A stretch of 60,732 nucleotides of DNA, filler included, from Hausera hauseri (taxonomy: Eukaryota), in assembly GCA_046269625.1 (NCBI GenBank). It is 11 parts of 11 records of this genome, joined end to end, with 100 filler letters (N's around TTAATTAATTAA, not from the genome) between each part and the next. Parts side by side here need not be neighbours in the genome. Positions count along the whole stretch, not along the records: positions 40,812 to 45,397 come from JBJURY010517015.1; 10 more parts are not named here. The stretch is one strand, 5' to 3'. The position numbers and the translations under genes were made by a program. Of the stretch, positions 19,575 to 60,460 are shown one piece after another. Position 1 is the first letter of the stretch, and every line of letters begins with the position of its first letter. A model generated the notes under the pieces. It did not search any database and had not been told where the DNA came from. It saw only the letters and a list, made by a program, of their open reading frames with translations.

Positions 19575-20324
19575 TGTTACAGTTGGGGTGCCCCTTACCG
19601 TCTCCCACTATAACAATATTTATTAAAAGTTTAGTTTCTCGTGAGCCGGTTAGGACTATTCGTTCTCGAATAGTCGAATGTACCTTATATTTTAAGACGT
19701 TAGGTAAATTATTCACAACTGCTGGTACTGCTTGATAAAACACTGCGTGCTTTAGTTAATAAATTCTAGTCCTACTTATGGAGTTTAAGTAAAATTTTAA
19801 CCTTAGGGTAGTATAAATCGTATGGAAGAGACGATGGAAAAACTATATAGAAAGTTGAAAATAATAAACTTAAAATAACCTTTATTCAGTGAACCCGGTA
19901 ACAACTTCAATATAGAAAAACACAGCTTCGATTGGATTAGTCAATAACAATAAAGTCTTTTAGAGTTTCTTGAATCAACTCTAAAGTCGTCCGACAACTA
20001 ATTTCGAAATTCTAACTTCTCATTCTCGTCTCTAATGGGGCTGTTTATATAGTTGAAATCAGGAATTCCATTACTAATTTTTCTAAATTTATTTACATTA
20101 CTAATCTAATTTTCATGGTTTTTATCCATTTTCTAAATTTATTTGCATTACTAATATACATTCCGACTATTCATATGTCAATTAAATTCTGTGTCAGTCT
20201 TCGTATATCTGGAAATCATTCGCTGAATGCAATTATATCTGATTACAAATTTTCTAAATATATTTCAATTACAAATTTTGTGTTTGAACTATACATTCCT
20301 TATGTTTATGTCGACTCTGCTACA
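19575..20324 (-). repeat. Complete 750-bp LTR
   Basis: Starts TGTAGCAG directly after PPT AGGGAGAAGAAA (20325-20336) and ends CTGTAACA before the PBS. Contains TATATAAA (about 20043-20050) and a downstream AATAAA (19881-19886). Confidence 0.88.
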
Positions 20325-22728
20325 TTTCTTCTCCCTGAGCGGCATCCTCGAAGGAGCCTATTGCGTCAAAAGAGGTGGCGCCCAATGTTCTAGGATGTCT
20401 CAAGAGGACTAGTCTTTGTCTCAAATCACTCTCAGAATCCGTTCTATTTTGATTATGCGCAGGGTTTGTTTCTAGATTATAACTAAGATGGGGTTTAATA
20501 CGTATCACTCGAGTGTAACTTCCATCCGCATAATATTTCAGGTCCGTGGCCTCCGCCCGACATACTGGACACGTTGTTTTTCCATTTTCGAGTGTTTATT
20601 TCTCTAAACAATCTCGGCAGTATTTGTGGCGGCAGATTTTATTATCTAATACTACATATCCTTGTTTTAGGTTACCGTCACATACAGGACATTCGTTGTC
20701 TTCTTTGTCTTAATCATCTCTATCCAAGTCTACCTGGATTGTGAATTCAATCGGTTCAAATACAAGACCGTCCTTGTCTTGATATAGATATCCATGGATC
20801 ACTTTTTGTTGAGGGTTAATTGAACTTTTCCTTGGATCTCAATCCACTTGTATTAATGTCCAGTCCGCCAAGTAGTCTCGATCTATATCTGGAACTTTTC
20901 CTTCTACACGATACTTTTGATATTGTTTTTTCAACAGTATACGGATTTGCTTGTCCACTGGGACTATTATTTTTCCTGTCCTCTTTGAACGGAAAATTGA
21001 GGTAAGGTGGTTTCCTAACTTTGGGTTTTCCCAGACATACGTATTTTCAAAAACCTCCCTGGCTGGGACAATTTTAATATAGAACATCGCCTCTTTAATC
21101 GTTTTCTTGCTACAATACTCAGTGGTTATCAGCATCCTTTGGTAATTTTGAGTTGTTTTGTGGTGGATATTTTCTTCAGTCCTTTTCTGTAGCAAAACAT
21201 TGATCTCAGTTATCATCGATTTCGTTTTCTTTACAGGATTATGCTTTTGGGAGATATTTGGTTCAATTCGTTGGTGTTCTCTCTTTTGTTTCTCCTCTTT
21301 TCTTTTCTTGAATAGATAGTTATAAATAGATGGCTTTTTCTTTATTTGTTGCTCGTCTTCCAATTTTTGTCTTTTCACTTTTGTTTCTGATTTTAATTCT
21401 TCTTTGCGCCCTTCTAAGAATTTTGGTGTTTTACTAGGTATTTTATCTTCCTTTCCAATTTCTGGGACTTGTGTTTTGTTTTCTTCCTGCTGTTGTATAG
21501 TGATCATAAGACTACGCTCATTCATTTGTAAAACAGCTTTGATCGGGGAGTAAGATTTAATATTCCGTCTATATCTGATATCTATTTGTTCGGGTTTTAG
21601 GGAACTATGTAAATTATCTGTGGGGTTTCTCGGGGCCCATTCATGTTCCGACTTTAACAACTTGTAGATTTCTTGTAAATATTTGGAACGCTGACTAGCC
21701 GTCAAGAGTCTTGGAATTTTGTTTGAGTCCTTTTTCATTGCTTCAATCATTAGTTTAAAGAAGGCTTCTGGGGCGGTTGGTCGATTTCTCCCTTGTACGG
21801 TCCTCTCCATTCGTTCTTGAACTATTGGGTGGGTGTCTATTTCCCTAAGTCCGGCAATATTCGCATCGGATATTCCTAATAGCTCGATTTCTCGTTTTAC
21901 ATTGTATCCCGTTATCATACACCCGTAGATGCAATGGTCTAACTCAGAACGGACCTGTTGAATATCTTTCCCGCTTATAAGTTGTTCTTTTCTTAAACCG
22001 GTTACTTCCGCGTATGATTCTTGAACGTGTTTTCGGGGATTTATAATAGTGGAGTAAAGCTCCGTTTTATCCCTTTCTCTAATAGATACTTCGATAGGTA
22101 CCCCATAACCATCGTCTCCTCTGCCACAACTTATTGCCATAATTCTTATGTTGCGGCTATCTTTAACTAATCTATATGACTGACGGTGTTTGTTTTTTTC
22201 TACTTCGATTGGAATTTGTTCAAATTCTAGAACTGGCAAGCCGAAGTTGCAGTTCTCTCTATAGGTTACTTCAAACATATGTTTAACAGGCAGGGCTGCA
22301 ATTCTGAATTTAAAGCCGTAGTCAATGTGTTCTAACCTTTTTTTACTTATTCTAAATGTACTAAAGCGATATTGGCGCCCTTCGTCAGATTTCCATGTTT
22401 GACTTTCTATTTTATAATATAGTTCGTTGTCGGCTAAACGTATGTATATATCCTGAATTTTCACTGGTCGATATCTGATTAATTCCTTTAAAGAATGTGC
22501 TTTTGCTTGGTTACCTTCACGCATCGTGTAGAGGTAAATCGCACGGTTTTCTTCTGTGGTGCCCTTCAAGTCATTTGGTATTTCGTTTACATTCCGATAT
22601 TCGACGTACATTTCTGTTCGTAGTACGTCATTTATCCTTCTGTATATAGCTTTTGATTTGGGAATAAAGACTGTAGCGTATCCTTGTAGGAATTCGTCGA
22701 CTCTAATTCGGCTGATCATACTTACCAT
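20320..22728 (-). pseudogene. About 800-aa protein: novel N-terminal domain + DEDDh-like domain + basic linker + C3HC4 RING
   Basis: The 629-aa ORF continues in frame through three stops into CPVC..CRHKYCRDC..CPVC and ends AQGEEM* over the PPT (2409 nt, one frame). DEDDh-like core IEVSIRERDKTELYSTIINPRKHVQESYAEVTGL..DIQQVRSEL..MITGYN. Confidence 0.78.
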
Positions 22729-22762
22729 TCTGAAAGAAAATACAAAATAAGGGTCAGTCCTA
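22720..22762 (-). promoter_or_regulatory. Splice acceptor (branch point, pyrimidine tract, CAG) followed 4 nt later by a donor consensus
   Basis: ACTGAC CCTTATTTTGTATTTTCTTTCAG|AATG|GTAAGT. The homologous site in contig 3 (13568-13605) reads ATTAAC CTTTATTTGTTTTATTTCAG|ATTT|GTGAGT. Confidence 0.65.
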
Positions 22763-22830
22763 AAACAAAGTATTGTTCTGAATCTGAACCAATTCTTTGT
22801 CTGATGGTGGAATAACCCGATCTGTAGTTG

Positions 22831-24200
22831 TCAGATTATTCCATCATTGATTTCGTTCTGTGGTACCATCACCCTTAATTCCCTCTCGGTGATTTTATGA
22901 CGCTTACTACAACAGTTTTTGGTGACCAATTGGCAAAACGCCATAAGAATTAAAGAGCAAATATTGATGTCTCAATAATTAATATTACTGAGAGTTATCC
23001 CCTTAGTTAGTTTTTCAGTTTTAACGGTAGTTGTAATTTCGCCTTCCACTTCCTCATTAGTTAGCAATTTCATTAATACAATCTCGTTTAACGTTCGTAC
23101 CGTAAAGGTTTTACTTCGTCTACTCTCTGCACTTATTTGTATTACGTAGTTGGTTTTTGGTTTCAATTAGGTACATTTGATTCGATGACTGTCTTTAACT
23201 AATGTTACTTTCTGATTATTATGCACTGTTCAAAAGCTTATTTCTACGTCGTAATTAAGTGCTTCTTCCACAACGAACGTCATTTCATATTGCTGTGTCC
23301 AATATTTTATAGGAATTGCTTCTAGCTCCTTTTAAGGTAATCCAGTCGTTTGTAGGAATTTTGTGGAAGTTGAAGTAGGTTTATTCATTTTCGAAGTCGT
23401 AATTCTTCTGGTTGTTGTTTCAAGTGGAATTCCTCAAATCGGATTTTTCAATTGGTAACTTCCTAAGAATATACTTGACTGGTTCGGCCGAACTTCATAT
23501 AGGGCCAGTCAAATTCTATATTTATATCCCTGAGATAACTTACAACATATGTTCGGCCTTCCGGCGTCGATCTGACAATACTGTTGGTTATAAGCTGTTT
23601 TGTCCACTCTCAGGAATTCAACCGTAATTACTCGTCCTTTAATCAACCGTCCTTTTGTGTTTATTTGGATACAATTATCTTTTAGGTTTTCCATTATACT
23701 CGCTATATTTTCGTCTAATATCCGTTTTAATGGGTCAGTGGATTTAAACATGTCTTCCAGTTCTATATTTAGATAATATCCATAAGTTTGTGGTATAACT
23801 AATTGTGAATTCAAATTTATTTCGGATTGTACTTCATTACAGTTCGGTAAATATGCACGATAGCTGAGAGCGTAAGAATGTCCTTACTCTACGTTGCAAC
23901 AAGTTGTATCGTCCTCTGGCTCGAATTTACAATCAGACTAGGTTTGGCTTAATAAGTCACGGAATAGTATCCGGATTTGCCCCTCATGTAATCCTGGTAA
24001 CCTAAACCCGACACATGGGGCTTCTGGCGAAAAATAATCTAATTTTATTGTTCGTAAAAATTTTTCGTCCTTTTGTTCTGGTTTATGCTCGGGAGTTCCC
24101 TCCTTTTGTGGCGGCGGTTTTAATCCGACTTTCCTGATTCCATATATATCGCTCAACGAATTTTCATCTACCCACCATTGGGCGTTAGACTTAGGCGTTA
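22831..24200 (-). pseudogene. Post-integrase ORF ending in FN3-like domain and TM helix, disrupted
   Basis: Fragments 23938-24156 and 23509-23814 are in one frame across stops. LKPKTNYVIQISAES..FTVRT (FN3-like), then ISIFALLILMAFCQLVTKNCC. Homologous to 13676-14449. Confidence 0.6.
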
Positions 24201-24213
24201 GGGCAGCAATTAA

Positions 24214-25182
24214 TTATAAGGCTACGATTATCTGTGCGTAAGATGTCGGTCTTGTGGTGANNNNNNNNNNATGTTTGGCCGGTTTTATATTTGTTTTAAC
24301 CACTTTTTGGATTGATACGACTTCTTTACCATTTTTATTAACATGGACTGTTGTTGGCGTTGTACGGACGATTACATACGGTCTTCTTCCGGTGCGTGTT
24401 AATTTCAAGGACGTGACTTTCTTCGCGACTGGGTAACGTATATAAACCCAATTTCTTTTTTTCAAATCATGAGGTTTAATCTTTTTATCATATTGTTTTT
24501 TAAATTGTTCCTGATACTCGAGCGATAATGTCTTCGCAACCTCCCAGCACTTTTGTAATCTTGTCTGTAAAACTTCTGCGAAGTTTTGTTCTAGAGCCTC
24601 GAGGTTCGTTTCATATAGTGTCATACCTAGATCCGTGGGTAAGATTGCTTCTCGTCCGTACATAATAAAGAACGGTGTAAACCCCGTTGCTGGATGTGGG
24701 GTCGTATTGATTGCAAACTGTGTCCCTTCTAGGAATTCATCCCAATCCTTTTGGTCTTTTGTCACTACGGTTGATAATATTCGAATAACTGTTGAGTTCA
24801 TCCGCTCGACCATTCCATTACATTGGGGGTGGTACGCGGTAGTGGTTAAACGTTCGATTTCGAATATCTTGGTAATTTTTTCGCATAATTCGCTTGTGAA
24901 ATTCCTTCCTCTGTCCGTTAAAATTTGTTCTGGTGGTCCATATCTGCAGATAATTTTCCTTACCACTGCATCGGCAAGTATTTCTGCCTTTTGATCTAAT
25001 AGTGCCACCAGTTCGACGACGTGAGTTAGTCCATCCACGCATGTTAGGATGTATCTGTTATTTTTGTGAGTTTTCGGCAGGGGTCCTACTATATCCATAG
25101 ACATAGCTTGCATGGGTCTATCCGGTACGTTTATAGGTTTTAGTTCTGCTACGTAGCCTTTCGTTTTCTTCTGTTTTGTCGC
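24214..25182 (-). CDS. pol: Gypsy integrase (catalytic core and C-terminus; 5' truncated)
   Basis: MDIVGPLP, TDRGRNF, TTAYHPQCNGMVER (D,D35E), TGFTPFFIMYGRE, GPY-like RPY. Confidence 0.95.
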   Translation of the reverse strand, partial: ATKQKKTKGYVAELKPINVPDRPMQAMSMDIVGPLPKTHKNNRYILTCVDGLTHVVELVALLDQKAEILADAVVRKIICRYGPPEQILTDRGRNFTSELCEKITKIFEIERLTTTAYHPQCNGMVERMNSTVIRILSTVVTKDQKDWDEFLEGTQFAINTTPHPATGFTPFFIMYGREAILPTDLGMTLYETNLEALEQNFAEVLQTRLQKCWEVAKTLSLEYQEQFKKQYDKKIKPHDLKKRNWVYIRYPVAKKVTSLKLTRTGRRPYVIVRTTPTTVHVNKNGKEVVSIQKVVKTNIKPAKHXXXXTTRPTSYAQIIVAL

Positions 25183-36495: not shown

Positions 36496-37220
36496 NNNNN
36501 NNNNNNNNNNNNNNNNNNNNNNNNNNNNNNNNNNNNNNNTTAATTAATTAANNNNNNNNNNNNNNNNNNNNNNNNNNNNNNNNNNNNNNNNNNNNCCAGG
36601 CCGCCGCCACACCCGGGGCACAACATTACCTCCTCCCTCGTGGATGAAATGAAAACTATAAAAGCAAGATAGAAGTGAAATGAAAGGCACCAAGAAAAAA
36701 TGTTTATTTTCGTCACGCTTAGTACGGACAAGATGTTGAATACCTTCTAATAATTTTCCCTACTGTATGTGCTGAATGTTATTTGCTTGTTTTGTTTGTG
36801 TGCGTTGTGTTAGGTTGCAGAGAGGTATATAGCGGGGTAAGATTTTCCAGATCTTTGGATTTAGTGTTTGACGTTGTGTCTGTCGAAGAGAATGAAGATT
36901 ATGAAGGAAAATAAGTCAAAGACAAAGTGGAGGAAGGTAAAGTAGGTTTGAAAGATTGAAGGTCTGAGGAAGATTGAGGAAAGGCATGACGAGAGCTGTC
37001 ATTGTGAAATGAAGAAGAATTAGAACATTGTGCGTTTGACGAAGGTTGAGATAAAGTATCAGGACGGGATTGAAGGCTTAGTGAAGGCTGAGACGAAAAG
37101 TCAAAGAGAGGTTTGTTGTGAGGTGGATTAGAAGGCTTGGTAAAAACATCAAGAAAGGAATTGCTGCAAGGCGAAACAGAATAATCAGGGTTGTCATCGA
37201 TAAAGAATGCTGGTTTGATG

Positions 37221-40200
37221 TTAGTGATGTGCATAGAACATTATCTTCCGTTTGGGCCTAACGTACTGAGGTTGGAACCCATGCGACACTGGATTCTTCA
37301 TCCAGACAAATTGGGTTGTACATAGAGTGTACATAGAGTTGTGATTTAGTATTCTGCAGAAAAAATCGCTATTCAACGCAACAAAGTGCTCCTGCGCTGT
37401 CCGGATTGTTTCGTCAGTGGGTGTTTCATCGCACTCCGCCAACTCCAACAATGTGCGCACTGGTGTACCAAAGAGTGCCTCGGATGGAAAGCAGCCAGTG
37501 GTTATGAATGGGGTGTTCCGCCATCCCAGTAGAATGTAAAGAAGAAAGTTTAGCCAGTATTGATTGGAGTCGGCTAGAATTTTTAGGGAGATTTTCATAG
37601 TACAATGAAAACACTCCAGTAGCCCATTCAACTGAGGATTATAAGGTGTTGTGTGAATATGCTTGATCCCCAGTCGATTTACTAATGATTTGAAAAAATT
37701 CGACTCAAATTGGGGCCTTGATCAGTGATTATGTACTTAGGTGAGCCGAATATGCTGAGCCACGTGCGAATGCAGACATCTGCAATTGTCTCAGTGTTAG
37801 TTGAGTAAAGTGGGATAGCTTCTAGCCATCTAGAAGCACGATCCATCATTGTGAGAATAAATTCATGGCCGTTGTCAGGTGGAAGAGGTCCGACTATGTC
37901 CATGTGGATGGTGTCGAAACGTGATGTGCAGGGAAAATGATAGGGTGACGGCTTGAGGTGTTTTTCATCTTTAAACTTCTGGTATGCCGCACACTCCCTA
38001 ACCCAATCCTGCACATCTGTTCTTACTGATGGCCACATAACTTGGCGTTTAAGAAGGCGATAAGTAGCTTTGGATCCTGGATGATGCAAGGAATAGATAT
38101 TGGTGAATGCAATTTTTTGCAAAGGAGGTGATAGAATAATTTTAATAAACCCAGGATTAGAGGAGTCCAAAGATACTCCATCAATGATTTTGTAAGATTT
38201 GAAGGCGGAGAGAATCAACTCGTCTGGAAGGTTCTTTCGGAGTAACTCATTATTAAAAATGGTTGCAAATGTAACCGAGTCGACGGAACGCGACAATAAA
38301 TCAGCCGCTAAATTGTCAACCCCCGAAATATGTTTTATTTCGAACGCGAACGTTGAGAGATACGAAATCTGTCTCTCTTGACGTGGTGATGGGGATTTCG
38401 TGGTGAGAATATGAAGTAGGGGCTTGTGATCCGTTTGAATGGTGAATGTGCGTGAAATTAGAATATGTTTAAAATGCTTTAATGCTAGGACCACTGCAAT
38501 AAGTTCCATGTCTAAAGTCGAATGGCGTTGTTGGACTTTCGAGATATCTTCTTGAGAAGAATTCAAGAGGTTTATGGGAACCGTCCTTCAATTGATGCAG
38601 TACTGCGCCTGCTGCTATTGTGGAAGCGTCAGTTGTTAAGAAAAGTTCTGAATGTGGATCAGGGTATGCAAGGATTTCCACAGTTCTTAAATTATCCTTG
38701 AGGTGATGGAAAGAATTGACTATGTGGGCAACCCAGTGAATAAACTGTTTCTTTTTACCGGAGCTCAGTGAGGCAAATGGTGTCGTTAGTGTTGAACAGT
38801 GAGGCACGTACTTGCGCACGAAGTGAAGCGTTCCAAGGAAAGCGCGCATTTCTGTTGATGTGCGTGGTAGTTGGACATTTTTGAGTTGAGTGATGCGATC
38901 TTGCTGGGAAGAGTGGCCAGATTGGGTGATAACGTGTCCAAGAAAGTTGATTCTATGTTGAAAAAACAGCATTTAACAAAGTGTACTTAAAGGTTGTTCT
39001 GGTGCAAGCGTTGGAAAGTTATGCGGAAATGTTCGGCATACTCTGGGGGTGATGACGCGATAAGAGTGTCATCTATATATTGAAAAGCAAAGTCTAGTCC
39101 GGCAAAAATTGTATCAATGTGTCTCTGGAATGTCTGTGAGGCACAGCGAAGCCCAAAAGCCATATAGACATTTGAAAAAACCTCGTGGTGTTATTACAGC
39201 CGTTTTCGGTATGTCAGCCGGAGCAACAGGAATTTGGTTATATGCCTTATGAAGATCGATGGACGAAAAAATTGTTTTACCATGCAGTCTTTGCAGGATG
39301 TCGTTGATCATAGGTAATGAATATTCGTCCATGATTGTAATGGTGTTTAGTTGGCCATAGTCACCACAAGGTCTGAAGGTGCCGTTCTTCTTGGGCACGA
39401 CGTGCAATGTTGATGCCCATGGTGATTTGGAACATCCGATGATGCCAGCGTTCTCTAAAGTCTGAAATTCATTAGCAACGGCTTTTCTGCGACGTGTTGA
39501 AAGAGGTCGCACTTTATGCCGAATTGGACGTTGATGAGAGGTAACAATGTGGTGAAATGTGTTGGAGTAATGCTTAAAGAATGGATATTTTTTGAGAGTT
39601 CTTTGGCATTGAGTGGTGACAAATGCTTGAAATTGGATGAGAGTTGGATAAAGGATGATGATGACATGGACACTTTATCATTGGGTACGGTAGTTTTTGA
39701 GATGATGTTGCCCGAAGAGGAAAACTCATTACTCTCAACGCTCGAAATATAGGTATTCGAGGTGTCATAATGTACAAGATTATTTACAAAATTTTTATTT
39801 TTTGAAATTATTTTGATATTCGGTCTTATAAATGAATCGCACGCTGGTGAAATTGAATGTAAAACTGATGAAACTGATAAAATTTTGGAGGAAGGGCTTT
39901 CCATCAAACGATGGTGTCTACAATCGACCAGTAAATTGTAATGTGAAAGAAAGTCTGATCCAAGGATTGGACTTTGCGCACTGGCTATTGTGAATTTCCA
40001 AGAAAAAAGTTCAGAGAAACCTGATATGGAAAAGGAAAGATTTGTTGTGACAATGGTGCGCAATGGTTCACCATTGGCTGTAAATAAGGGTTTTCTGATT
40101 GAAGAAGATTTTTGCGATTCATAAGAAAGAGGAAGAAGTGAGACTACAGCTCCAGTATCAATGAGGAAAGAGATGGAAGAATTTTTAGAAATAATGGTAG
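37221..40200 (-). pseudogene. pol: pol (PR-RT-RH-INT) of the CsRn1-clade element
   Basis: ORF fragments 39455-40063, 39114-39512, 38469-38972, 37682-38566 and 37221-37631 carry consecutive pol motifs. Confidence 0.88.
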
Positions 40201-40293
40201 CTTGCAGTGTGAAGACAGCAAAGAATGCATTACGGCTGTTTAATGAGGCGCTTTAGCCTTGATCAAAAGTTGCCGTGACTTCTGGTGGTGTGG

Positions 40294-40653
40294 TTAGTTT
40301 TTTGATGGCGTTGTTGGGTTTGACTGTGCCGATGAATTGTAAAATTTACAGCCTTGTATGCACTTGCGAGCATTGTCGCGAAATTTATTGTGATAAATGC
40401 AGACGGCCTCGTTTGATATCAATCTTTGATTGTAAAATCTGCATCCTATGCAGCATTTATTTGCGTTTTTCTTATATTTGGAGTGAAAAAAGCAGGTCAG
40501 GCCGCGCATAGGAGAAATGTTGCACGAATAACAACACGATCTTGTGGGGAGCTGTTGATTCTCAGAAAAAAATTTGCATCGCACTGTCATTTGTTTGAGC
40601 TTATCTTTGATGGCTGAAATTGCTTGTCGTAGTGCGACATTCTCTATGTGCAA
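40294..40653 (-). CDS. gag: gag C-terminus with tandem CHCC zinc motifs
   Basis: CFFHSKYKKNANKCCIGC and CIYHNKFRDNARKCIQGC. Confidence 0.75.
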   Translation of the reverse strand: MHIENVALRQAISAIKDKLKQMTVRCKFFSENQQLPTRSCCYSCNISPMRGLTCFFHSKYKKNANKCCIGCRFYNQRLISNEAVCIYHNKFRDNARKCIQGCKFYNSSAQSNPTTPSKN

Positions 40654-40811
40654 TGATTGAAGCTGATTATCAGTGTTTGTTATTGTGTTTTGATTATGTA
40701 TTACTAGCTTTNNNNNNNNNNNNNNNNNNNNNNNNNNNNNNNNNNNNNNNNNNNNTTAATTAATTAANNNNNNNNNNNNNNNNNNNNNNNNNNNNNNNNN
40801 NNNNNNNNNNN

Positions 40812-41850
40812 TCCGAGGACCACGGATTGAAATTCATTAAGAAGCAAATGCTCTCTCGATGCAACGTAGTAATGTATGCCACTAACTATGAAGCATTTTT
40901 TGTGGCAGAGGCCGAAATCACTACCTTCACTTTGGAAACAAAAGACGTAAGAATAGAAGATTATTTAAAGAATAGAGACGACTTCTTCTATTATAAAGGA
41001 CAAATTGGACTAGGAGAATTATATCACAAGATGATTGCAAATGATTGTAAATTGGATATGGAAATCATGAAAACTAAACTGGCCGTAATCTATGCGAATC
41101 CAGAACTAGCATCTCCCTTAATTCCAATGAAAGAAGGTATTTTTGGAAGAGTCACCGGAGAGGTACTGTTGACCTACGAATGCGAAAAACTAAACGTATC
41201 CTTAAATGTGGAAGAAAAACGCTGTATCCAAGAATTGCCAGTCATATATCAAAACGTACCTCGATTGGCTATGCCACTCACTAGAGTCTTACTAGAAAAC
41301 GCGACACAACCAACTATTTTGAAAGAATGCAAAGCAGGGTTAGGCGAACCCATGTTTAAGAGAAGTGAGACAGATTGGGTAAGTCTGCCAAATGGAGGAA
41401 TCATAGCTACACCTAGCAAATTAACCGGAACGAACTTACTAAAAGGTATAACAGACGACAAGTTCGCTGACACCGCGAGTAAAGGGATTTACAGACCAAA
41501 AGAGATTGGAGCTTTTAGACAATTTCTAGCCTTCTCTCGACAGCGTACACATGAGCTAAATAGAGCCATGTCTACGGTGATGGATGACACTCGCTACCAA
41601 GCAAAATTGAAATCCTTACTTGGCGTTAACCATTATCAGAGAGTTACTACAGAAATTTTATATAAGATCTGGGGAAGATTTCTAATTTTCGGACAAGCTG
41701 CATCACGATTTTTAGCCATCTACTTCATGGTACAACTCGTAAAGGCTATAATACAATCTATCATAAATGGATATGAAATATTTACTCTAACCGGATTTTC
41801 GTGTAAAATCTTAACGGCAATCATAACGCCGTTTGGAAAATTTCTGAAAG
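40812..41850 (+). CDS. env: Chuvirus-like envelope glycoprotein (C-terminal ectodomain and TM), N-terminal part of the polyprotein
   Basis: LYHKMIANDC..EGIFGRVTGEVLLTYEC..CIQELPV..PLTRVL..C..W..GIY..IWGRFLIFG + hydrophobic segment + IINGYEIF..GFS follows the conserved motif order of chuvirus/jingchuvirus glycoproteins. Confidence 0.8.
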
Positions 41851-42485
41851 CTTACGAAGAAAACAAATGGAAAAGCGACGTGGAGAGACATGTCGGTTAC
41901 TATAATCGAAAACGGAAGAGAAAATCTATATTTTTTATAAGCCAAAGAAGCACAAAATCTCGGAAAAACAATTCAGATGATGACGAGCCTAAGGGAGGAA
42001 ACGCAGTCTCTAAGATGAGCAATCGTAAGGCGCTTAGGCCGCCTTTACCAATGCTTCCCCCTTCGGCGCCGCAATACGAAGACAGCGACAAGAGATCTAT
42101 TAACTCTTACAGCTCAGACATCTACCGGAAACCCTTCAATTATGAAGATCCCTATGAAGGGACAAAACAATACGGCGTGTTACGGAAAATGTACCGAACC
42201 AGAGAAAAATCCGAATTATGTCGCCAACCGGCAGATGATCGCAAGATAATATATTCTCCAAGGATTTCACGGAATATAGAAACTAAGTCATTAATTTGGG
42301 ATAGTCCACGAATGCAATCTTTCCAAGAACCACTAATCAATACGCCAGATCGAGACAATGAAAACAATGTAACTAATGGATTGTATCCCATTGAAGAGCT
42401 AAGACAAGTAGCCGAGAATAAAGCACCAGAAATTAGTATAAATGGATATAAGATATCCGTCGTTAAACAATCTAAGATAAAAGAA

Positions 42486-43916
42486 GGTAGACCCTTCGCC
42501 AAAATCAGTATTGAGGATTGGGAGGTTTACGCACTAGTAGATACCGGATCAGAAAGATCATTTATAAAGGACAGATCGATACCAAAAACGTTGCGAAATC
42601 AATTGCGACCACCACTTGCAACTGATCCCGGAAGTATAGGAGCTTTCGGACAAGAATCAAGGCCAAAATTCAAATGGAACCCTAACCTAAAAATAATGGG
42701 ACAGAAGTTCCAGCATGAATTCTCTATAATGGAACATTTAACGGACGACGTAGTAATCGGGTGTGATATATTAAGACGTCTGACAAACGTCGCAATAGAT
42801 CTAAATACCTCGAAGTTAATCGAACTCGGACCGATAAAAGGGACTAAAGTCAATAAAGAAAGAGAATCCGGAGAAGTATGGATTCCGGTCGACGAAAACA
42901 TTCCGCCTAGAACGGAATTGTTAATATTTGCACAAATCTGTCAAGACGATGACATACCAGTATATTTCGAACCAAAAGAAACGCTAAACCCGAGTGTAAT
43001 ATTAAGCAATATATTAACCCGAGTAGCATCCGGTCGAATACCTGTAAGAATAGTGAATAATGCTCAAACTCCAGTAAAATTATATGCCAATACTACTCTA
43101 GGACATACTTACAAAGCATCAGCCATAACAGTCGAAGAGAAGCCGTACAAATACGCAGAATTTCCACCGCACGTCGACACAAAGTTTTCGCCAGAAGCTT
43201 ATTGCCAATTTTACGAATTATTATGTCGATATAAATCAATTATTGCAAAAGACGAAGAAGACATAGGCCGAGCAAAGGCATTGAAACTAACGATACCACT
43301 TAAGAAAAAGCCTGAATCCAATGATGAAATTGATCTCGAGGAACAGAAAATGCCAAAATGGTATCCGCCACCGCATTCCCTAAGACCGGAAATAACCAAG
43401 GAAGTAGAACGTATGTTAAAGGCCAATGTAATTCGACCCAGTTTCAGATCATGGTATTCACCTATTCTAATGGTTAAAAAGAAAGGAACTACGAAACATC
43501 GATTTTGTATCGATTATAGAGCATTGAATACACTCATGTTGAAGGACTCTTTCCCTCTACCATCCGTAAAAGAAGCGTTAGATAGACTCTCGGGTGCAAA
43601 ATGGTTCACTACGCTGGACTTACAATCAGGATATTGGCAGGTCGAGATCGAAGATGAGGATCGTTATAAGACCGCGTTTAAGACGCATGACGGCGTATAC
43701 GAATTCAACGTTATGCCATTTGGAATTACCACTGGACCAGCCATATTTACCAGGATGATGAACAAGATGTTAATGGGACTTGAACATGCATTTGCGTACT
43801 TAGATGACGTAATGATTGCATCCAAAGACGAAAAAGAGCATTTAAAGGATATTGAGGACACTCTAATGAGATTAGAACAAGCTGGGTTGAAACTAAACCC
43901 GAAGAAATGTAAATGA
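42486..43916 (+). CDS. pol: Aspartic protease, dUTPase-like spacer domain and reverse transcriptase
   Basis: ALVDTGS (42531), VVIGCDIL; IPPRTE..IPVRIVN..KLYANTTLG; RFCIDYRALN, LDLQSGYWQ, MPFG, YLDD (43797). Confidence 0.95.
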   Translation, partial: GRPFAKISIEDWEVYALVDTGSERSFIKDRSIPKTLRNQLRPPLATDPGSIGAFGQESRPKFKWNPNLKIMGQKFQHEFSIMEHLTDDVVIGCDILRRLTNVAIDLNTSKLIELGPIKGTKVNKERESGEVWIPVDENIPPRTELLIFAQICQDDDIPVYFEPKETLNPSVILSNILTRVASGRIPVRIVNNAQTPVKLYANTTLGHTYKASAITVEEKPYKYAEFPPHVDTKFSPEAYCQFYELLCRYKSIIAKDEEDIGRAKALKLTIPLKKKPESNDEIDLEEQKMPKWYPPPHSLRPEITKEVERMLKANVIRPSFRSWYSPILMVKKKGTTKHRFCIDYRALNTLMLKDSFPLPSVKEALDRLSGAKWFTTLDLQSGYWQVEIEDEDRYKTAFKTHDGVYEFNVMPFGITTGPAIFTRMMNKMLMGLEHAFAYLDDVMIASKDEKEHLKDIEDTLMRLEQAGLKLNPKKCK

Positions 43917-45397
43917 GCTCAAAACGCCGTATCCTACCTTGGTCATATAGTTGGCGAAGGAGGATCAAAACCAGATAAATCATTACTGAACAAAATTTCT
44001 GACTGCATGGAACCGCAGAACCAAAAAGAACTAAGACATTGGTTAGGTCTATGCGGATATTATGCGACCTATGTGCCAGATAACTCAAAAATCAACGCAC
44101 CATTATACCGATTGTTAAAAAAGGGAATAAAATGGAAATGGACCGACGTTGAACAAAAGGCATTCGATGAAATGAAGAAAATATTAACTAGCGAACCAGT
44201 ACTGAGATACCCCGATTTTAACTTACCATTTATTATTAAAACCGACGCAAGCAAAGAAGGTATCGGATATGAACTAGCACAAAAGCGCGAAGACGAAGAA
44301 TTAGAACACCCAATTGCTTATGGAGGACGCTCCCTAAAGAAAGCAGAGAAAAATTACTCAGTGACAGAACTAGAAACTCTAGCAGTAAAAGAAGCACTGA
44401 GACATTTCAACGTATATGTATATGGACAAAGGATAATAATAGTTACCGACCATAAGGCAGTGACAACTCTAAAAGGACGAGCAAATAATCCTACATGTAG
44501 ATTAAATCGGTGGATCGAAGAAATATCAAGATACAATATAGAATTCCAATATAAACCTGGTGCAAAACACGTGGATGCAGATGCATTGTCCAGGTTGAAG
44601 ACAAAGGCAAGTGCCATCATGACAATGAGGAAAAATCAACTTGAAGAACTGATTGATAGACAACGAACTTTAGCATCGGACGGAGCAATCAGAATTTCGA
44701 ATGAACAAAGGACGGACCGAGTTATTCAACAAATCATTGAATATGCCGAAACGGACGTGATGCCGAAGGGACACCAGTTAAAGAAACATTTACAACGATA
44801 TGGACACAAATATTGTGTATCTGAGGACAAAGACAATGAAAAAGTGCTGTACTACCAGCGAAAAGGAAGAAAATTGGTAGTTATACCCAAAATTCTACGA
44901 ACTGAAGTTCTAATGGCCGAACACGATTCGTATCTAGCTGGTCATATGTACTGGAAGAAGACGTTAGAAAGGGCAATGAACAAATATTATTGGCCTAGTA
45001 TATACATTGATGTGAAAAATTGGGTAAGCGCCTGCGAAGTATGTGCAACGAAGCAAAGGAAAATGCGAAATTACATAGCAGAGTTGAAACCGATAGCTGT
45101 ACCGGACAGGCCGATGCAAGCCATGACGATGGACATAGTAGGACCACTGCCCACGACGCACAAAAATAACAAATATATATTAACATGCGTCGATCGTTTA
45201 ACTCACTTCGTAGAGTTAATAGCGTTATATGATCAGAAAGCAAACATTAGCTGAAGCCGTAGTAAGGAAGATTATTTGTAGATACGGACCACCCGATCAG
45301 ATACTAACCGATCGAGGAAGGAATTTCACTAGCGAACTATTCGATAAAATTACGAAAATATTCGAGATCGAGAGATTAACTACAACAGCTTACCATC
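43917..45397 (+). CDS. pol: RT connection, RNase H and integrase (same frame, after the premature stop)
   Basis: YLGHIV, TDAS, YSVTELE, TDHK, ADALSR, HHCC (EHDSYLAGH..CEVC), MDIVGPLP, TDRGRNF. Confidence 0.93.
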
Positions 45398-45658
45398 NNN
45401 NNNNNNNNNNNNNNNNNNNNNNNNNNNNNNNNNNNNNNNNNTTAATTAATTAANNNNNNNNNNNNNNNNNNNNNNNNNNNNNNNNNNNNNNNNNNNNAAA
45501 TCAAACAATCCTTTTCTGCATCACACAAATGAATTTTAATTTATTATTTAAAAATTTTAATTCGTTTTTTTCATAATTTAAAAATATGCCTAATTAAAAC
45601 AATTTCCAAAAAATAAAAACCAATAATATTTCATATAAATAAAAAATCAATAAATAAA

Positions 45659-46369
45659 ATGACCATTTCCATAAAAATCGTAACAAAACATTTTACAATG
45701 TACAAAATCATTTTATTCATTTTACTCATTTCAACTGAAGCCGCAAAATCAACATACCGTTACGAATTGGTCAAAAGTTTTCCATTGACCAAAAACGAAC
45801 CATTTCGATTCAAATTTTTTTTCTCCGATAAAATGGATAAAAGAAATTCCGATTTAATGTTTGTACTTTATTCAAATTGGCCAAACATAGTCGATTATAT
45901 TTTGTGTACAGAACATAAAACTATTCAATTATTCAAATTTGGTAGTAACTACATACGATCAAGGAATTGTGAAAGAACAAATAAATCCATCAATGTTGAT
46001 ATTACATTCAAACATTATGCTGAGGGTATGAGATTGAAAGTGTTCTACATAAATAAAGGATCTGTGACAAATCGCAGGAATTTCATCATGAGTGCAGATT
46101 ATTTCACAAAGAATGAAGTAATTGAATATGACATTTCTCTAATGCATCTAAATGACAAAGTAGAAACTACAATCAATACAACAAAACCATTTGTCAAACA
46201 ACCAAACAATTCCAACACAATTTTATTCATTCCAATAATTGTTGGATGTATTCTGATTGGTGTGCTAATTGCATTGATTATTGTATTGATTATTGTCTGT
46301 ATTTATCGACAGAAGAAAATGATCAACAAAAGTGACGTTCCAGAAATGAAATATTCAATCAATGTATAA
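45659..46369 (+). CDS. Hypothetical type-I membrane protein
   Basis: Intact 236-aa ORF in very AT-rich DNA. Signal-peptide-like MYKIILFILLISTEAA and long C-terminal TM ILFIPIIVGCILIGVLIALIIVLIIVCIY + RQKK. Confidence 0.65.
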   Translation: MTISIKIVTKHFTMYKIILFILLISTEAAKSTYRYELVKSFPLTKNEPFRFKFFFSDKMDKRNSDLMFVLYSNWPNIVDYILCTEHKTIQLFKFGSNYIRSRNCERTNKSINVDITFKHYAEGMRLKVFYINKGSVTNRRNFIMSADYFTKNEVIEYDISLMHLNDKVETTINTTKPFVKQPNNSNTILFIPIIVGCILIGVLIALIIVLIIVCIYRQKKMINKSDVPEMKYSINV

Positions 46370-50904: not shown

Positions 50905-51677
50905 AACAACATCTGCTATAAGATTACTTGTCTCCTCAACTGGCACCTGGTGAAGGATGCATGAGTATGCCGCAAGTCTGTATGATGACGAATACATTTT
51001 GGAGTTCTTCTTCACAGAGACAATGTCACAATCATTTGAAGTTTCGCACTCAAATAACAACCCCCCAGTCTGTCATTATCTAGTTCGAGTTCTTTGATTT
51101 TTTTTTTGTGCACAGTTCAGTTCTTTTCTGACATCTCCCAACAGTCTCCGATATTGACATTTATGTTTACTTTTCTTCTTCTGCACTTTTGGACAAACCA
51201 GCTCAATAGACCGTTTTAATTTTCTAATTTCAGCATCCTTTTGCAGTACAATCTTCTTTAATTTCTGTCTTTCGTCTCGTAGTTTTGATACTATGTTTGC
51301 TTTGCGTTCATTAGCTTGCTTAATTCTTCTATTCCTATCACTAGACAAGAGCAAACGATCAAAATCGTTTTTAAGCTTTTGTTTGCTTGACACTAATGTT
51401 TTAAGTGAAGCCCGTCTGTTCACACATTTTTTGCAGTCTGACTTCAGTCGCTTAGGAGAGGGTGCTGTCACATTTATAGTTGACTCAGAGTTTATGACAC
51501 AAAAGGGAGGATGGCTGGCTGGTCGTTTGACTGGTGTAACAGGAGGGACTGAGGAAACTAGATGCTGAGAGCAAGGCAAGTCAGGGGTGGACCCTGCTTC
51601 TGAAAAGGTACCATCAGTAACATTAACCTTCTTGACTGGAATACTGAATGTTTCTTTTAGAAGACACAATAATGTGG
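50905..51677 (-). pseudogene. Basic coiled-coil protein fragment, possibly from a DNA transposon
   Basis: ORF 51076-51702 and frameshifted continuation 50905-51060. Interrupted upstream by a SINE tail. Family not identified. Confidence 0.3.
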
Positions 51678-51900
51678 CCATCCCATCCATCCATCCATCC
51701 ATCCATCCATTATCTATACACGCTTAATCCTTGAAGGGTCGCGTGGGTCACTGGTGCCCATATCCAGCAGTCACAGTGCGAGGGGCGGGGTACACCCTGG
51801 ACAGGTCGCAAGTCCATCACAGGGCCACACATAGAGACAAACGAGACAGACAACCATTCACACACTCATTCACACCTAGGGACAATTTAAAGTTACCAAT
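51678..51900 (-). mobile_element. 3' part of a teleost SINE (V-SINE/Mermaid-like) with (TGGA)n tail
   Basis: (CCAT)n then GGCGGGGTACACCCTGGACAGGTCGCAAGTCCATCACAGGGCC..CACACCTAGGGACAATTTA, typical of this abundant fish SINE. Confidence 0.75.
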
Positions 51901-52018
51901 TGGCTATGTGCACAATATGGCTTCCGCTAACTTCCGGCCAAAGGTTGTGAGGTCGAGAACTTCCGGGTAAACGTCTATATCATTCAGGTTGGATTGTTTT
52001 GATAGAAAACGGTTGAAA

Positions 52019-54472
52019 ATGAGCATGTCAGGTGTCCAAAGAAAGAGATTGTGCTATCAGCGAGTGAGCGGATCATCGCTACACTGTTGTGTACCTCGAT
52101 GTTCGTGTTCCTCACGTTATAATTCAAAAGTTAGCTTTCATAGCTTCCCTGCTAATAATGTAGTGCGTCAGCAATGGCTAGCTAAAATCCGGAGAGAAGA
52201 TTTTAGTCCCAGACGAGACACACGGGTATGTAGCCGACATTTCCTGCCTGATGATCTGGTAGATACACCGGGGGGGAGGAAGTGGTTAAAAAAGGGTGCT
52301 ATTCCTATTTTATTTGAGTGGAACAACTACTCATTGCCTGAGAAAAGACCCGGTGTGTGGGAACGGAGGGTTCGAGAGGAATGTGCCGCTGCAGATCCGC
52401 ACGTAGACACTTCAGAGTCGGAGGTGGTGTTTGTTGCTCCTGACCACGATTACTGTGTTTCACCGACAACTGGAGTAATGGCCAACGAGTTACAGACTGA
52501 AAACGAGGTCCTGCGCAAAAGAATCGAACTGCTTCAAAGCCAAGTCGAGAGGCTGCAGCTGCGGACCCGTTTTGGTCTGGAGCGCTTTGCAGGCTCAGAT
52601 GACGAAATCCGTTTCTATACCAGGTAAGTTTGTATTATGGGGAGCTTATTTTGCTGTGTTAACTGTGTATTGTACTGTAGTAATCCGTACATGAATTGGC
52701 TCAGTGTAAACAATATATCTAACCACAGATGTGTGCTGTTACAGTTGAATTACTTTAACTGAGTCAATGGACATTTCACTCATTTAATGCGGTGATAAAT
52801 AAGCTGCTAAGTACATAAGTAATCCACCAACAAATCAGTATGATTGAATATAATCATCTAAATACAACTCCTACATTTATTAACGACTATTTATTATTAA
52901 ACTAATTTGATAGTTATTTTGTTTTGGATTGAAGAGTTTTGGATCATCCTGCTGAACAGCTAATTTTGTTTGTTTACTATATACAGTTGGTATGCCTGTG
53001 TAATCCAGCAGGCTGACATATTTGTTATGTTCCACATGAAGCTAAGATGCTATAAGAGCTCAAAACTGAAATTTAATGAAATAGTTGTTTATGCTCTTTA
53101 TCTATCTATATGATTATTTATTAAGGAAAATAAGAAATTAAGATTTGCTTGCAGTGTTCTTGCTTCAGATTTAGTGTTATGGTAAAATAAATAATTTTCA
53201 AACAGTCCTTCATTTAGCTTAACAGTGGGACTTAAACTAGAAGGTACTGATATCAATTACTGTTGTATTTTATGTAGTTGTTTTTATTGTCACAGGTTTG
53301 CTTCATACAAACATTTCCAATATTTCTGGAAGCTTGTGGAGCCTGCAGTGAAGACCAAGATGATTCGGGTCACCAATCCCAAGGCCTCCATAGCTGGCTC
53401 TGACAGATTTCACACATCCACGGTAGGATGTATTATTTTATAGATCAGTGTGTGACAGTCAGATCTGGAGTAATCCATGCAGTTTGTATGGTCAGATCTC
53501 AGAGCTGACTGAGCATGGAGCTTTGGGATTATGCTCTCTTTTAGTGCAGTAACTAGGAACTACATAATTATAAATTAACATAATCTGGAGAAAAATAATA
53601 AATTTTGTTATTTTTCGTAATTATAACCTAAAAACAGGATTTTTAAAAGCATTTATAAACAGCTTAGAAGTTTTATTGTAAGAGTCGTATTTTAATTTCT
53701 GTTCATTGTTTTTGTGTCTTTGAAGAAACTTCCTCCTATCGATGAGCTGTTCCTTTTTTTGATGTACCTGTCCTTGGGCCAGCCACAACAAGATCTTGCT
53801 GAAAGGTTTGGCATTCACCGAACAACAGTAAGCAGGATCATCACCACATGGGCCAACTTCCTCTACCAACTGCTTGGAAGCAAACGCCTCTGGTTGCCCA
53901 AAGAGGTGGTGCGTGCACGACTTCCAGCCGAGTTTGCTTCATACCCTGACACCCAAGTAGTGCTTGATTGCACTGAGATCTACTGTCAGACGCCATCGGA
54001 TCTCCTGTTGCAGAGTGAGGTGTTTTCTACTTACAAGTCCCACTCTACACTCAAGGCCATGATCGGCATGGCACCTCATGGTGCGATCACATTTGTCTCT
54101 GCCCTTTTTGCTGGATCCATGAGTGATCGTGAGATCTTCAAACAGTCAGGCATTGTCAGGTTACTACAGCCTGACATGGCAATAATGGTTGACAAGGGCT
54201 TTCTAGTGGAGAGTCTGGCTACATGTAAAGTATATAGGCCAGCCTTCCTCTCAGGAAAAAATCAGATGAGCCCACATGATGTCCGTGAGACTCAATCCAT
54301 TGCTCGGCTAAGGGTCCACGTAGAGCGCTGCATCAGGAGAGTGAAGGAGAACAAACTTTTTGACCATGTTCTCCCGGTGTCTGTGTGTGGGATAATTGAT
54401 GAGCTCTTCAATGTGGCTTGTTTCCTGGTAAATTACCAGAATGGACCCCTTGTGAAGGCATGGGCAATTTAA
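52019..54472 (+). CDS. THAP + HTH + DDE_Tnp_4 transposase, 3 exons (52019-52623, 53296-53422, 53726-54472), 492 aa
   Basis: THAP CCVPRC..FHSFP..W..VCSRHF..AIP; catalytic LDCTE, VDKGF, RVHVER. GT-AG introns join in frame. Confidence 0.92.
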
Positions 54473-54544
54473 AGCAAGTATGTCAAAGTCCTGTCATCGA
54501 GGCCTGGTGTCTCTGATTTAACTGATCTTAATTAAATAATCCTG

Positions 54545-55328
54545 GCACGTATTTATCAAACTTCTTAGAATTACTTCTAAGAATGCTGTTAAGAATGGAC
54601 TAAAAGTTAAAAAAATCTTAGTTTAACGCTGAGCCTAAAATTATTTTTTTCTTTTTTGAAATTAACAGATTTCGTTGAGTTTGAGTTAAAGAGAAGTTAA
54701 AAGAAAAATTCAATTAAATCCTAATCAGTGTGGGGGGAAAATGACATCCAAACTTTTGACAGCATCATGTCACCTGCTTTCACTCACCAGATGATAGTTT
54801 AATATTCTCTCCAAAAGCTCCATAGAAATGTCCCCCTTTTAGTCCAATATTAAGACCCTGGTAATCATTTTTTCTATCTTTCTTTCTTTTGCTTTGATGA
54901 ATAAACTTGTTTTTCACACCTTATTTTAGTTACTCTGTACATTGTAACTGAAAACACTCAGGTGGGGGACCCCGGACCACTTAGTGCCATTTAAGAGGTG
55001 GTGCAGAGTATTCTGTCCTCCTCTGCACCACCTCAGAAACTGCACTAAGTGGTCTGGGGTCCTCCACCTGAGTGTGAGGTTTCTGAGGTTGTGCAGAGTA
55101 TTCTTGAGGAGGACACACCTGTGATCTCTATCTTTCCAGTCCATCTGGCAACTTTTAACCACTTAAGAGTCCTCTCTGCAGTCTTAACTTTTTGGGAGAG
55201 TGATTCTTAGTCTTAAGAGTCTTGATAACTGGCACTTACACTTAAGGCTGAGAGTAGGAGCTAATCTAAGAAATTTTTCAGCACTGAATTCTAAAATTCC
55301 GCTATAAGAAGTTTGATAAATACGGGCC
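54545..55328. mobile_element. Harbinger-like MITE nested inside a second short repeat (about 54475-55445)
   Basis: TIRs GCACGTATTTATCAAACTTCTTA / TAAGAAGTTTGATAAATACGGGCC flanked by CTG on both sides. The right flank resumes the repeat also seen at 9262-9462. Confidence 0.75.
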
Positions 55329-56285
55329 CTGATCATTAGCAGGACTATGCAGAACATGACCGCATACCGAGGAGTTATTTCATTCAGGTGTTTTGGACCA
55401 TGAATACATCTAAAAGTTGCAGGACACCAACTCTTGAGGCCTTTATTTTTACACCCTCAACTCATAGTCCCGGATGTTTAATGAAATCATACAAATTTAA
55501 ATGACATTGTGAAAAGCAAAATGTGGGTGTTGGTTATTTTTGTTTCTTAAATTGTTATAAATTTTCTTATAAATGTGATATTTAGGATTGTGTGCAACAT
55601 AATTGTAATTACTGATTTAGCTTATGATTTAGTTTTATATTCAGGTTGGATGTTTATCCATGTTATCACATTGCTTAACTATTGAAAAAACATCACACAT
55701 TGCCAATGAAATTGCAGTTTTGATTACCGTAGATTGTGATAAATTTTCTACTGTGAACTTAAGTATTACATTTTATGTTCAAGTAAAATACTTCAAACTA
55801 TGCAAATATGTCTCCTTTCTTATTCAATAAAAACATGTAAAATATTTAAGCCTGTAGCTGCCCCACTAAGAAAAACTCCATTAATCATTATTTCCATTGG
55901 GTGACTACAATTTAGTCACAGCATCATCTGTCTGATCTTTTTAGCATGAAATACTTTAACTAGTAAGTTTCAGTTAGTTTGGGCACTGCTGTCTTTGAAG
56001 TTTAGTGACTCAAAATGTGACTGAAACAGTTAAAAGGATTAACATGTGCACTCATATCAGTTTATTTTATTTGACATGTTAACAGCTGAAATTAGTGATG
56101 GTTGAGTTTTTCATAACATGGGCTCTTGAAATTCTCAAACACAGTTAACATTTCTTATAGTTAAACGTTTGAAAACACTTGAACAGAGTAGTGCTAATAA
56201 AATACCAGAAAAACACTGAAAAGAACAGAATGACTGCTGATACAATGACAGTGAAGGAGGAAGCATGCACATAGCATTGAAGAAT

Positions 56286-59200: not shown

Positions 59201-59768
59201 AGCTAGATAGGCTCAAACTCCGTCATTTTTTTTCAACAGCTAGAAATACTTCCTACTTAATTTAAACATCGGTGACATGAGAACCCCAAAAATATAGTCA
59301 TCTCTTTGTGAAACCGATCAACATTTCTTGTTGTTCCTACTCTGAGTTCATGAGGCTTATCAGACTTTCGCATGGATCTGTAACAGACCGCCCTGATGCT
59401 CACTTTCCCTGAAGAGTCTTTGTTGGACACTGTGGTGAATAAAAAAGGGTAAGAAAGAAATCTGAAAGTACAACTTTGTGGTTTAAACAGACGTTACATA
59501 ATTGCAGAAAGCAAGACTCCATTAGTTATAATGTAGAAAGAAGAAATAGGTTGTAAAGTAGATACGAGCTAAAGCTAGTTAGCACAACAGTGACTGGATG
59601 TATTTATTGCTTACCTTCATAGTTGTCAATGTAATTCGACACGTAAAATTTGAAGCCCTTTTCCTTTTTGCAACGTGGAGCTGATGATAACGTTCGAATC
59701 AAGCGGAGAACATCGCTGATCGTCACTTTTGGGAGGTCCTGAAGGCAGCGGGTGTAAAACAACGCCAT
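56286..59768 (-). CDS. SWIM zinc finger + YqaJ (lambda-exonuclease-like) protein, 5 exons (59768-59615, 59429-59341, 58564-58370, 57830-57751, 57237-56286), 489 aa
   Basis: CSCVAGTVLCNH (SWIM); EWHNVRRPRVTSS, SPDG, EIKC, YYWQVQGQL. All four GT-AG introns splice in frame. Confidence 0.9.
57565..57726. repeat. Tc1-like terminal repeat remnant in an intron
   Basis: CCACTTTGTGTTGGTCT..TTTGTGGTTGTAA..TATGAATACTTATGAAAGGCCCTG|TA resembles fish Tc1 ends followed by TA. Confidence 0.55.
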
Positions 59769-60460
59769 TGCTCTCCGTGGTGAACGGGCGGACCGGAAGT
59801 ACTTGCCCTCACAACTTCCAATTAGCGGAAGTCACGTAGCCACATCGTGCAAAGAGCCAATTTAAAAAAAACTTGAAACAAACGGTTTTGCAGTAACCAT
59901 AGGAAAAAATACAAATAAAATACCAAAATAGGCCTTTACATCCGGTCAACTAAAATAAAACAGGAAGTGGTTTCAAAATAAAAGCATAATGTTTACAATT
60001 TCTGTAATGAACATTGAAACGGTTACAGAACATTGTCAGAACATCCGTCCAATATGGAAAAAAGTTTTAGTATACACTCAAATTCCTTCAATAAAATAGT
60101 AATATTTATTTGATTTTTTCAAATAAATATTACAAGAAGGCCGGATGTGCGGCTGAGATCCACACTCCTTACCAGTAGGCGGCGGTAATGCACACCGATA
60201 AGTTGCTTGTTAACCGCCATTAAAACAAGAAGAAGAAGAAGATGTGCGGCTGAGATTCTCGCGAGACGCTGTGCGTGAGTACAATGAGACACTGGTAAGC
60301 TAAAGATATTCATAGCAAACATTTAAGAAAAACAAACATAAAAGTAAAATCTTCCTGTGAAAACTAACAACTGTCTTTTTCGATAAATACAAACAAACTG
60401 GAAGAGGATACGTTAGAGAGCTTGGAGTTTTTCGTGGACGAATACTTTGACCGATTCGTT

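Follow-up and report, generated by a model that had tools for sequence, protein, structure and literature searches.

Several envelope-bearing retrotransposons with long terminal repeats (LTRs) are already known in which the envelope gene precedes pol. Passages of Chary & Hayashi (eLife 2026, PMC13524379) describe env-bearing Ty3/gypsy elements with the order GAG-ENV-POL in Nematoda, Bryozoa, and Platyhelminthes, whose envelope is of the herpes simplex virus/glycoprotein B (HSV/gB) type like that of Chuviridae and whose ectodomains are "flanked by two transmembrane domains"; supplementary file 1 of that paper lists ten elements from bryozoans and nine from flatworms, and the term "Nematoda" matches 72 times at two per row. 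The same passages cite Sacco 2022 for the flipped gene order in nematodes and for a captured RNA-virus glycoprotein before pol in a metavirus, and a passage of another study reports no clear gypsy capture of such a glycoprotein in arthropods (PMC10084718). Contig JBJURY010517015.1 of the Hausera hauseri assembly GCA_046269625.1 is a new, broken copy of this known type of element. It occupies positions 40812-45397 of the window, i.e., the whole stretch of 60,732 nucleotides that was analysed, which consists of 11 short contigs with spacers between them. A first-pass annotation of the window had implied that Env before Pol is a novel arrangement and had taken it as a general rule that env is situated 3' of pol, in an open reading frame (ORF) of its own; neither view agrees with the published GAG-ENV-POL elements, which carry this envelope type in three phyla (PMC13524379). 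The gene order itself is therefore of little weight, and the interest lies in the motifs of the envelope tail and in a possible second membrane protein.

[quoted passage not shown] The contig is complete (4586 bp), flanked by spacer runs, and begins within the Env ectodomain. An open frame of 1034 codons without any stop extends from the contig edge to position 43913 on the plus strand; the remaining two frames contain 101 and 71 stops. In this frame, Pfam detects Monjiviricetes_fusion (PF24664; amino acids [aa] 11-352, E 1e-39, profile positions 265-605 of 653, i.e., the C-terminal half), RVP (aa 558-657), and RVT_1 (aa 888-1034). Beyond a TGA codon, the unchanged frame encodes RNase H and, of the integrase, the zinc finger and the beginning of the core (Pfam), which in a three-frame translation switches to another frame at about 45241-45254 and then runs to the contig end. 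The single open frame from glycoprotein to protease, without stop or frameshift, is thus as the first-pass annotation had described it. The 218 codons between the transmembrane (TM) region and the protease remained open in none of 5000 base shuffles. The linker contains a single slippery-type heptamer (41931), which consists of a run of T residues and has no stop that a frameshift would circumvent. The domain order PR-RT-RH-IN and the best solved-structure matches of the RT (4ol8, E 7e-41; Ty3 Gag-Pol, 7q5b, E 2e-40; next best, E 1.6e-28) identify a Ty3/gypsy Pol with a gypsy-type RT, and the contig combines an HSV/gB-type class III envelope with a position of env upstream of pol. LTRs and a tRNA primer-binding site are absent from this internal contig, but a sister contig has an LTR (20324-19575) and a primer-binding-like site.

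Profile and structure predictions alike assign the N-terminal region to the chuvirus-type class III fusion glycoproteins. An AlphaFold2 model of residues 1-345, based on a 127-row alignment in which cysteines 79, 124, 138, and 173 are at least 90% conserved, has a mean pLDDT of 87. The best viral Foldseek matches of the model are chu-like glycoproteins (E 6e-14), and all 38 PDB matches listed are herpesvirus gB (best E 6e-4). The VIA aligner maps Env residues 1-270 to gB 393-735 with a Z score of 6.9 and a root-mean-square deviation of 13, a middling value that counts only together with the Pfam and viral matches. Both comparisons proposed in the first-pass annotation, with chuvirus G and with class III fusogens, consequently support its assignment of the glycoprotein.

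The same arrangement is present among 158 other database proteins, which comprise the best 150 of 512 HMMER matches, the matches of a word search, and cluster members. Env lies upstream of PR or RT within one chain in 18 of these proteins, representing 12 distinct clusters whose RT, where whole, is 45-57% identical to that of this copy. Capsid-like domains precede Env in P0002, P0011, P0012, and P0026; P0011 has a protease motif downstream of the TM segment, and both P0002 (4057 aa, five cluster members) and P0026 contain Gag, Env, PR, RT, RH, and IN in a single chain, so that the possibility of a Gag-Env-Pol polyprotein, raised in the first-pass annotation, is realized in relatives. Pol domains precede Env in two of the 158 proteins; in a third, P0042, a Pao integrase tail lies before Env. 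A quick version of the Env tree, built from 85 of the 143 Env pieces that remained once 16 rows had been dropped as short or duplicate, contains one group of 23 rows (SH-aLRT 92) that unites 14 Env-then-Pol rows with three Gag/leader-Env rows and six fragments, and the three Pol-then-Env rows fall outside this group. A word-index search at lengths of 568-1810 detected no Env relative, although the HMMER scan returned several in that range. Judged from these sequences, the Env-Pol fusion is a family trait and not a one-off deletion.

A one-off deletion or a mis-assembly at the junction had been named in the first-pass annotation as one of the results that would overturn its interpretation. The element belongs to a repeat family assembled from short contigs, and no listed contig of X1, the single run containing this stretch (12316 contigs placed on it, 30/30 bins covered; depth does not equal copy number), crosses the whole junction, which would be compatible with such an artefact. 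However, overlapping, divergent X1 contigs tile positions 41631-42568, and the region from TM to protease is covered in 30/30 bins by 1778 X1 contigs, with indels each present in only one or two of the contigs listed. Together with the recurrence of the order in 12 other clusters and its publication elsewhere (PMC13524379), this refutes an artefact in substance and leaves it vanishingly improbable.

The topology of the encoded protein was assessed with a simple hydropathy rule. A hydrophobic, signal-like segment directly precedes the Env start motif in 12/12 full-length relatives checked, after 148-1364 N-terminal residues, and has a small-residue cut site at a distance of no more than 10 aa in 11 of them. 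The ectodomain is followed by one uncharged run of TM length (18-23 aa in 14/14 homologues, 11 aa in this copy); a second segment comes next, in which the uncharged run reaches no more than 9-11 aa in 13/15 rows, and no further TM-like segment lies between this segment and the RT in seven of eight rows. The TM range of 41664-41846 given in the first-pass annotation therefore does contain a TM segment (about 41679-41765) but is not one long TM, the remainder being a short amphipathic segment (about 41778-41837). Because the chain appears to pass the membrane only once, Pol should reside in the cytosol, attached to Env, and the earlier proposal that Pol stays tethered to the membrane until its release by the protease is a sound inference.

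The linker between Env and protease (41868-42482) has no BLASTP match to any other database protein examined. The motif [LIVMF]YPx1-3[LI] occurs in 7 of 14 linkers, compared with 0.36 after shuffling. As an independent set, 70 stand-alone chu-like glycoproteins (600-720 aa; possibly including endogenous copies) were compared over their C-terminal 70 residues, which are likewise enriched in YPx[LI] (27/70 vs 2.0 shuffled), [LIVMF]YP (38/70 vs 3.4), and P[ST]AP (8/70 vs 0.5), whereas Y[^P]x[LI] occurs at chance level (17/70 vs 16.7). The PSAP and LYPxxxL motif classes bind TSG101 and ALIX, according to a passage of PMC5217368. The simplest reading of these sequences is that the linker represents the inherited cytoplasmic tail of the donor glycoprotein, joined to the protease and carrying budding signals, and it is possible that the tails of stand-alone chu-like glycoproteins hold candidate late domains. 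Alternatively, the YPxL and PSAP motifs may act as signals for sorting or endocytosis, or may be functionless leftovers of the donor's tail, with budding driven by Gag. YPxL also satisfies the YxxL pattern of tyrosine sorting signals, and 5 of the 14 linkers lack a motif of the YPxL type, but the enrichment in the stand-alone tails is specific to proline at position +1 and extends to P[ST]AP, which makes this alternative rather unlikely. Tail motifs shared by the elements and stand-alone chu-like glycoproteins suggest a route for recruiting the ESCRT (endosomal sorting complex required for transport) machinery, also for viruses said to lack a matrix protein. A passage of PMC6394706 assigns late domains to other ORFs, not to G, and no report of a late domain in the tail of a chuvirus glycoprotein was found in the portions of the literature covered.

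From this layout we infer each step of processing and budding. One message would be translated into the chain Gag-signal-Env-TM-tail-PR-RT-RH-IN. The internal signal would thread the Env ectodomain into the endoplasmic reticulum, where host signal peptidase would cut the chain and leave Gag anchored on the cytosolic face; the single TM segment would then halt transfer, and Pol would be made as a cytosolic, membrane-tethered extension of Env. The YPxL and PSAP motifs of the Env tail, presumably inherited from a chuvirus-like donor, may recruit ESCRT for budding. Trimerization of Env may bring the protease domains together, and the protease would release PR, RT-RH, and IN inside the particle, which the class III trimer would fuse with a new cell.

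Conceivably, the single frame is genuine and the full polyprotein is nonetheless only a minor product, with Gag, Env, and Pol derived mostly from spliced or prematurely ended messages and Pol usually not tethered to Env. A 1:1:1 polyprotein yields far more Pol and Env per Gag than known retroelements produce, and some relatives start at Env or PR (P0010, P0160, P0158) and others stop behind the TM segment (P0009, P0017), although these may be products of gene calling or decay. By contrast, 12 clusters with RT identities of 45-57% to this copy (where RT is whole) have preserved the open frame through linkers that are long and cannot be aligned, which implies translation through the junction, and the sole slippery-type heptamer offers no stop to bypass. 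A minor role of the polyprotein therefore appears improbable. Nevertheless, several points weigh against the proposed membrane-spanning Gag-Env-Pol polyprotein. With so much Pol and Env made for each Gag, splicing or premature termination is probably at work as well and is a serious competing explanation for the production of most Gag; P0009 and P0017 end just downstream of the TM segment. Gag, the signal, and fusion-loop domain I lie off this contig and are deduced from relatives with an Env identity of 29-34%, and P0157 has an additional hydrophobic segment between Env and RT. The YP motif was first spotted by eye in these same linkers, which renders its enrichment test there post hoc, and even its loose form is missing from 5 of the 14 linkers. 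The Env tree is a quick version with an SH-aLRT value below the 95 mark; finally, not one of the X1 contigs listed covers the entire junction between TM and protease, and the source sample may be X1 itself.

The first-pass annotation had considered the copy disabled by one TGA and one frameshift. Both lesions are present, but a third was missed: a charged residue at 41706-41708 shortens the uncharged run of the TM segment relative to all homologues. The stop in RT, the frameshift in IN, and the charge in the TM segment disable this copy, which consequently lacks the full-length RT and IN in continuous ORFs that PMC13524379 requires of an "intact" element (a curation rule, not a lineage trait). 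All three lesions are private to one decayed copy within a large multi-copy family, because 43449.6 of 43726.5 X1 depth differs at the TGA (43914-43916; 110 contigs), most X1 depth differs at position 41706, and seven X1 contigs differ in length at the frameshift site. One X1 contig skips most of the Env part that this contig contains (window positions 41070-41864) and is a possible env-deleted derivative.

The region downstream of integrase is represented in a sister contig (19103-25182, minus strand), in which the integrase is followed first by a broken signal/FN3-like/TM region, next by an ORF resembling an exonuclease and by RING-like remnants, and then by a purine tract, an LTR, a primer-binding-like site, and a possible gag start; such an arrangement points to copies in tandem or to an LTR that was collapsed. 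The putative gag start (19410-19105) has no match to any database protein examined and is weakly labelled, by its position. The 663-codon ORF contains a DEDD-exonuclease-like stretch (Atlas RNase_T 0.89; recognition 2215, below the 2300 mark) that serves as a lead only; DEDDy ORF3s are known from rotifer LTR elements, as stated in a passage of PMC5408684. A third related 3' region (10021-14449, minus strand) contains an FN3-like ORF (14330-13815; Atlas fn3 0.92; recognition 1635, a weak match below the 2300 mark), fragments of that accessory ORF, together with a RING finger (11654-11250; Pfam zf-RING_2, E 2e-4, below the cut-off). Pfam detects no family in the 663-codon ORF or the FN3-like ORF. 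A second signal-like segment, an ectodomain with the motif CxxLxPxTxY, and a TM segment follow the integrase in frame also in P0002, P0005, P0007, and P0157. This motif has five matches in 116154 database residues, all within the post-integrase regions of these four proteins, whose ectodomains show weak mutual phmmer similarity; the assignment to FN3 rests on the motif and the weak Atlas match. No paper on an FN3-like post-integrase protein in env-bearing LTR retrotransposons was found among titles and the beginnings of abstracts.

This second membrane protein may serve as an attachment or immune-decoy protein. A tentative and rather doubtful extension of the above scheme would be an enveloped particle built, in flavivirus fashion, from a single four-pass polyprotein, in which Gag and a signal precede the class III fusogen with its TM and ESCRT-recruiting tail, and Pol is followed by a second signal, an FN3-like attachment protein, and a further TM. 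The budding signal would then be located in the tail of the envelope protein rather than in Gag and would have been captured together with the glycoprotein from chu-like viruses. If so, the tails of chu-like virus glycoproteins would be those viruses' own late domains. The coordinates of all features are compiled in Table 1.

Table 1. Features of the Env-Pol element and its sister element (positions in the window)
Feature	Position	Strand	Evidence
C-terminal half of chuvirus/gB-type class III fusion glycoprotein (Env), predicted; 5' end cut by contig edge	40812..41867	+	Pfam, AlphaFold2 model, Foldseek, VIA
Env single transmembrane segment; charged residue at 41706-41708 in this copy	41679..41765	+	Hydropathy, uncharged-run comparison
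Conserved short amphipathic segment, predicted cytosolic, not a second TM	41778..41837	+	Uncharged run of 9-11 aa in 13/15 rows; two short model helices (331-336, 339-344)
Env cytoplasmic tail/linker to protease, open in frame	41868..42482	+	0 stops, shuffles
PSAP late-domain-like motif	42060..42071	+	Motif class in a passage of PMC5217368
LYPxxxL late-domain-like motif, 52 aa upstream of protease DTG	42381..42401	+	Motif search
Aspartic protease, DTG at 42540-42548	42483..42782	+	Pfam RVP, E 2.5e-7
Reverse transcriptase up to stop, YLDD at 43797-43808	43347..43913	+	Pfam RVT_1, E 1.8e-34; 4ol8, 7q5b
In-frame TGA, breaks RT	43914..43916	+	Sequence; most X1 depth differs
RNase H	44139..44534	+	Pfam RT_RNaseH_2, E 2.9e-35; RT_RNaseH, E 5.6e-32
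Integrase: HHCC zinc finger and core, frameshift near 45241-45254, cut by contig end	44883..45397	+	Pfam Integrase_H2C2, E 5.3e-18; rve
3' part of sister element: integrase, broken signal/FN3-like/TM region, 663-codon ORF with exonuclease-like stretch	20842..25182	-	Integrase 76% nucleotide and 79% aa identity to that of contig 40812-45397
Sister-element LTR of 750 bp (TGT...ACA), purine tract before and TGGCGA primer-binding-like site after it	19575..20324	-	Sequence

Several polyproteins of the family contain cargo. Among P0002, P0003, P0004, P0009, and P0157, this cargo comprises repeated protease domains (four in P0003), ankyrin repeats, a ubiquitin-like domain (E 4e-5), and, directly before the Env signal of P0009, a Bcl-2-like segment (E 1e-3). 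NCBI lists P0005, an Env-Pol polyprotein of the same family, under a metagenome-assembled genome of Flavobacteriaceae as a hypothetical protein, and the record likely represents animal DNA in a bacterial bin. Elsewhere in the window, positions 36596-40711 (minus strand) encode a different, frameshifted gypsy Pol (PR, RT, RH, IN), apparently without env and only 24-33% identical to that of the Env-Pol element, and positions 45617-46369 (plus strand) an ORF of 250 codons with an N-terminal signal-like segment, a C-terminal TM segment, and no Pfam family above the cut-off. Positions 50905-60732 contain a THAP domain, a Harbinger-type DDE transposase, a YqaJ-like nuclease, and, at their end, what we take to be a likeness to the start of a fish-type LINE-1 ORF1; the assembly may combine two animals. 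Pfam scans of 22 ORFs in the window yielded only mobile-element or weak families and no host marker, and no tRNA genes were found in the window.

As analogies only, two known systems share parts of the proposed layout. The polyprotein of flaviviruses and the structural polyprotein of alphaviruses, which are split by signal peptidase, have the same order of capsid, internal signal, envelope, TM, and cytosolic enzymes, and p6 of HIV-1 also has a PTAP-type motif followed by an LYPxL-type motif just before the protease, with no homology expected. Among retroelements, the endogenous retroviruses of nematodes treated by Sacco et al. 2022 (J Gen Virol) reportedly have a continuous gag-env-pro-pol ORF and are said to be restricted to nematodes; in contig 40812-45397, env, pro, and RT are continuous, and gag lies off the contig. 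A chuvirus-type glycoprotein in an LTR retroelement is also present in the Anakin elements of mosquitoes, but passages of Dezordi et al. 2020 (PMC7642597) place these in the BEL/Pao family; membership in Anakin was rejected, as no Pao-type Pfam family is detected here at E values up to 1 and the RT is closest to Ty3. P0042, the sole Pao-type row among the relatives, has its glycoprotein behind DUF5641 and groups on the opposite side of the Env tree. Troyka, which a passage of PMC12440569 characterizes by the absence of an envelope and by CG...CG termini, was ruled out by the presence of Env and by the TG...CA ends of the sister LTR.

The main text of PMC13524379 does not contain the terms "fused", "single ORF", "fibronectin", "exonuclease", or "frameshift", and its passages treat the order of ORFs without stating that Env and Pol are fused in frame; its figures and deposited annotations may record the single frame and the extra ORFs. 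The passages of this and the other papers do not address the Gag:Env:Pol ratios, membrane crossing, or budding of such elements. Compared with the intact elements of that study, the present copy is broken, but it shares with its "ancient errantiviruses" the Ty3/gypsy Pol, the Chuviridae-like gB-type Env, the position of Env before Pol, and the multi-copy state. The nearest by motif are Smed_errantivirus_1-6 of Schmidtea mediterranea (configuration C1a). The YATNY motif of the present copy occurs in two rows of supplementary file 2, both from Schmidtea, and YQEx[DG][FL] is present in 6/6 Schmidtea rows and in 8 of the 23 proteins of this copy's group, compared with 1 of 130 others. By these motifs, the closest relatives of the Hausera element resemble the Schmidtea group.

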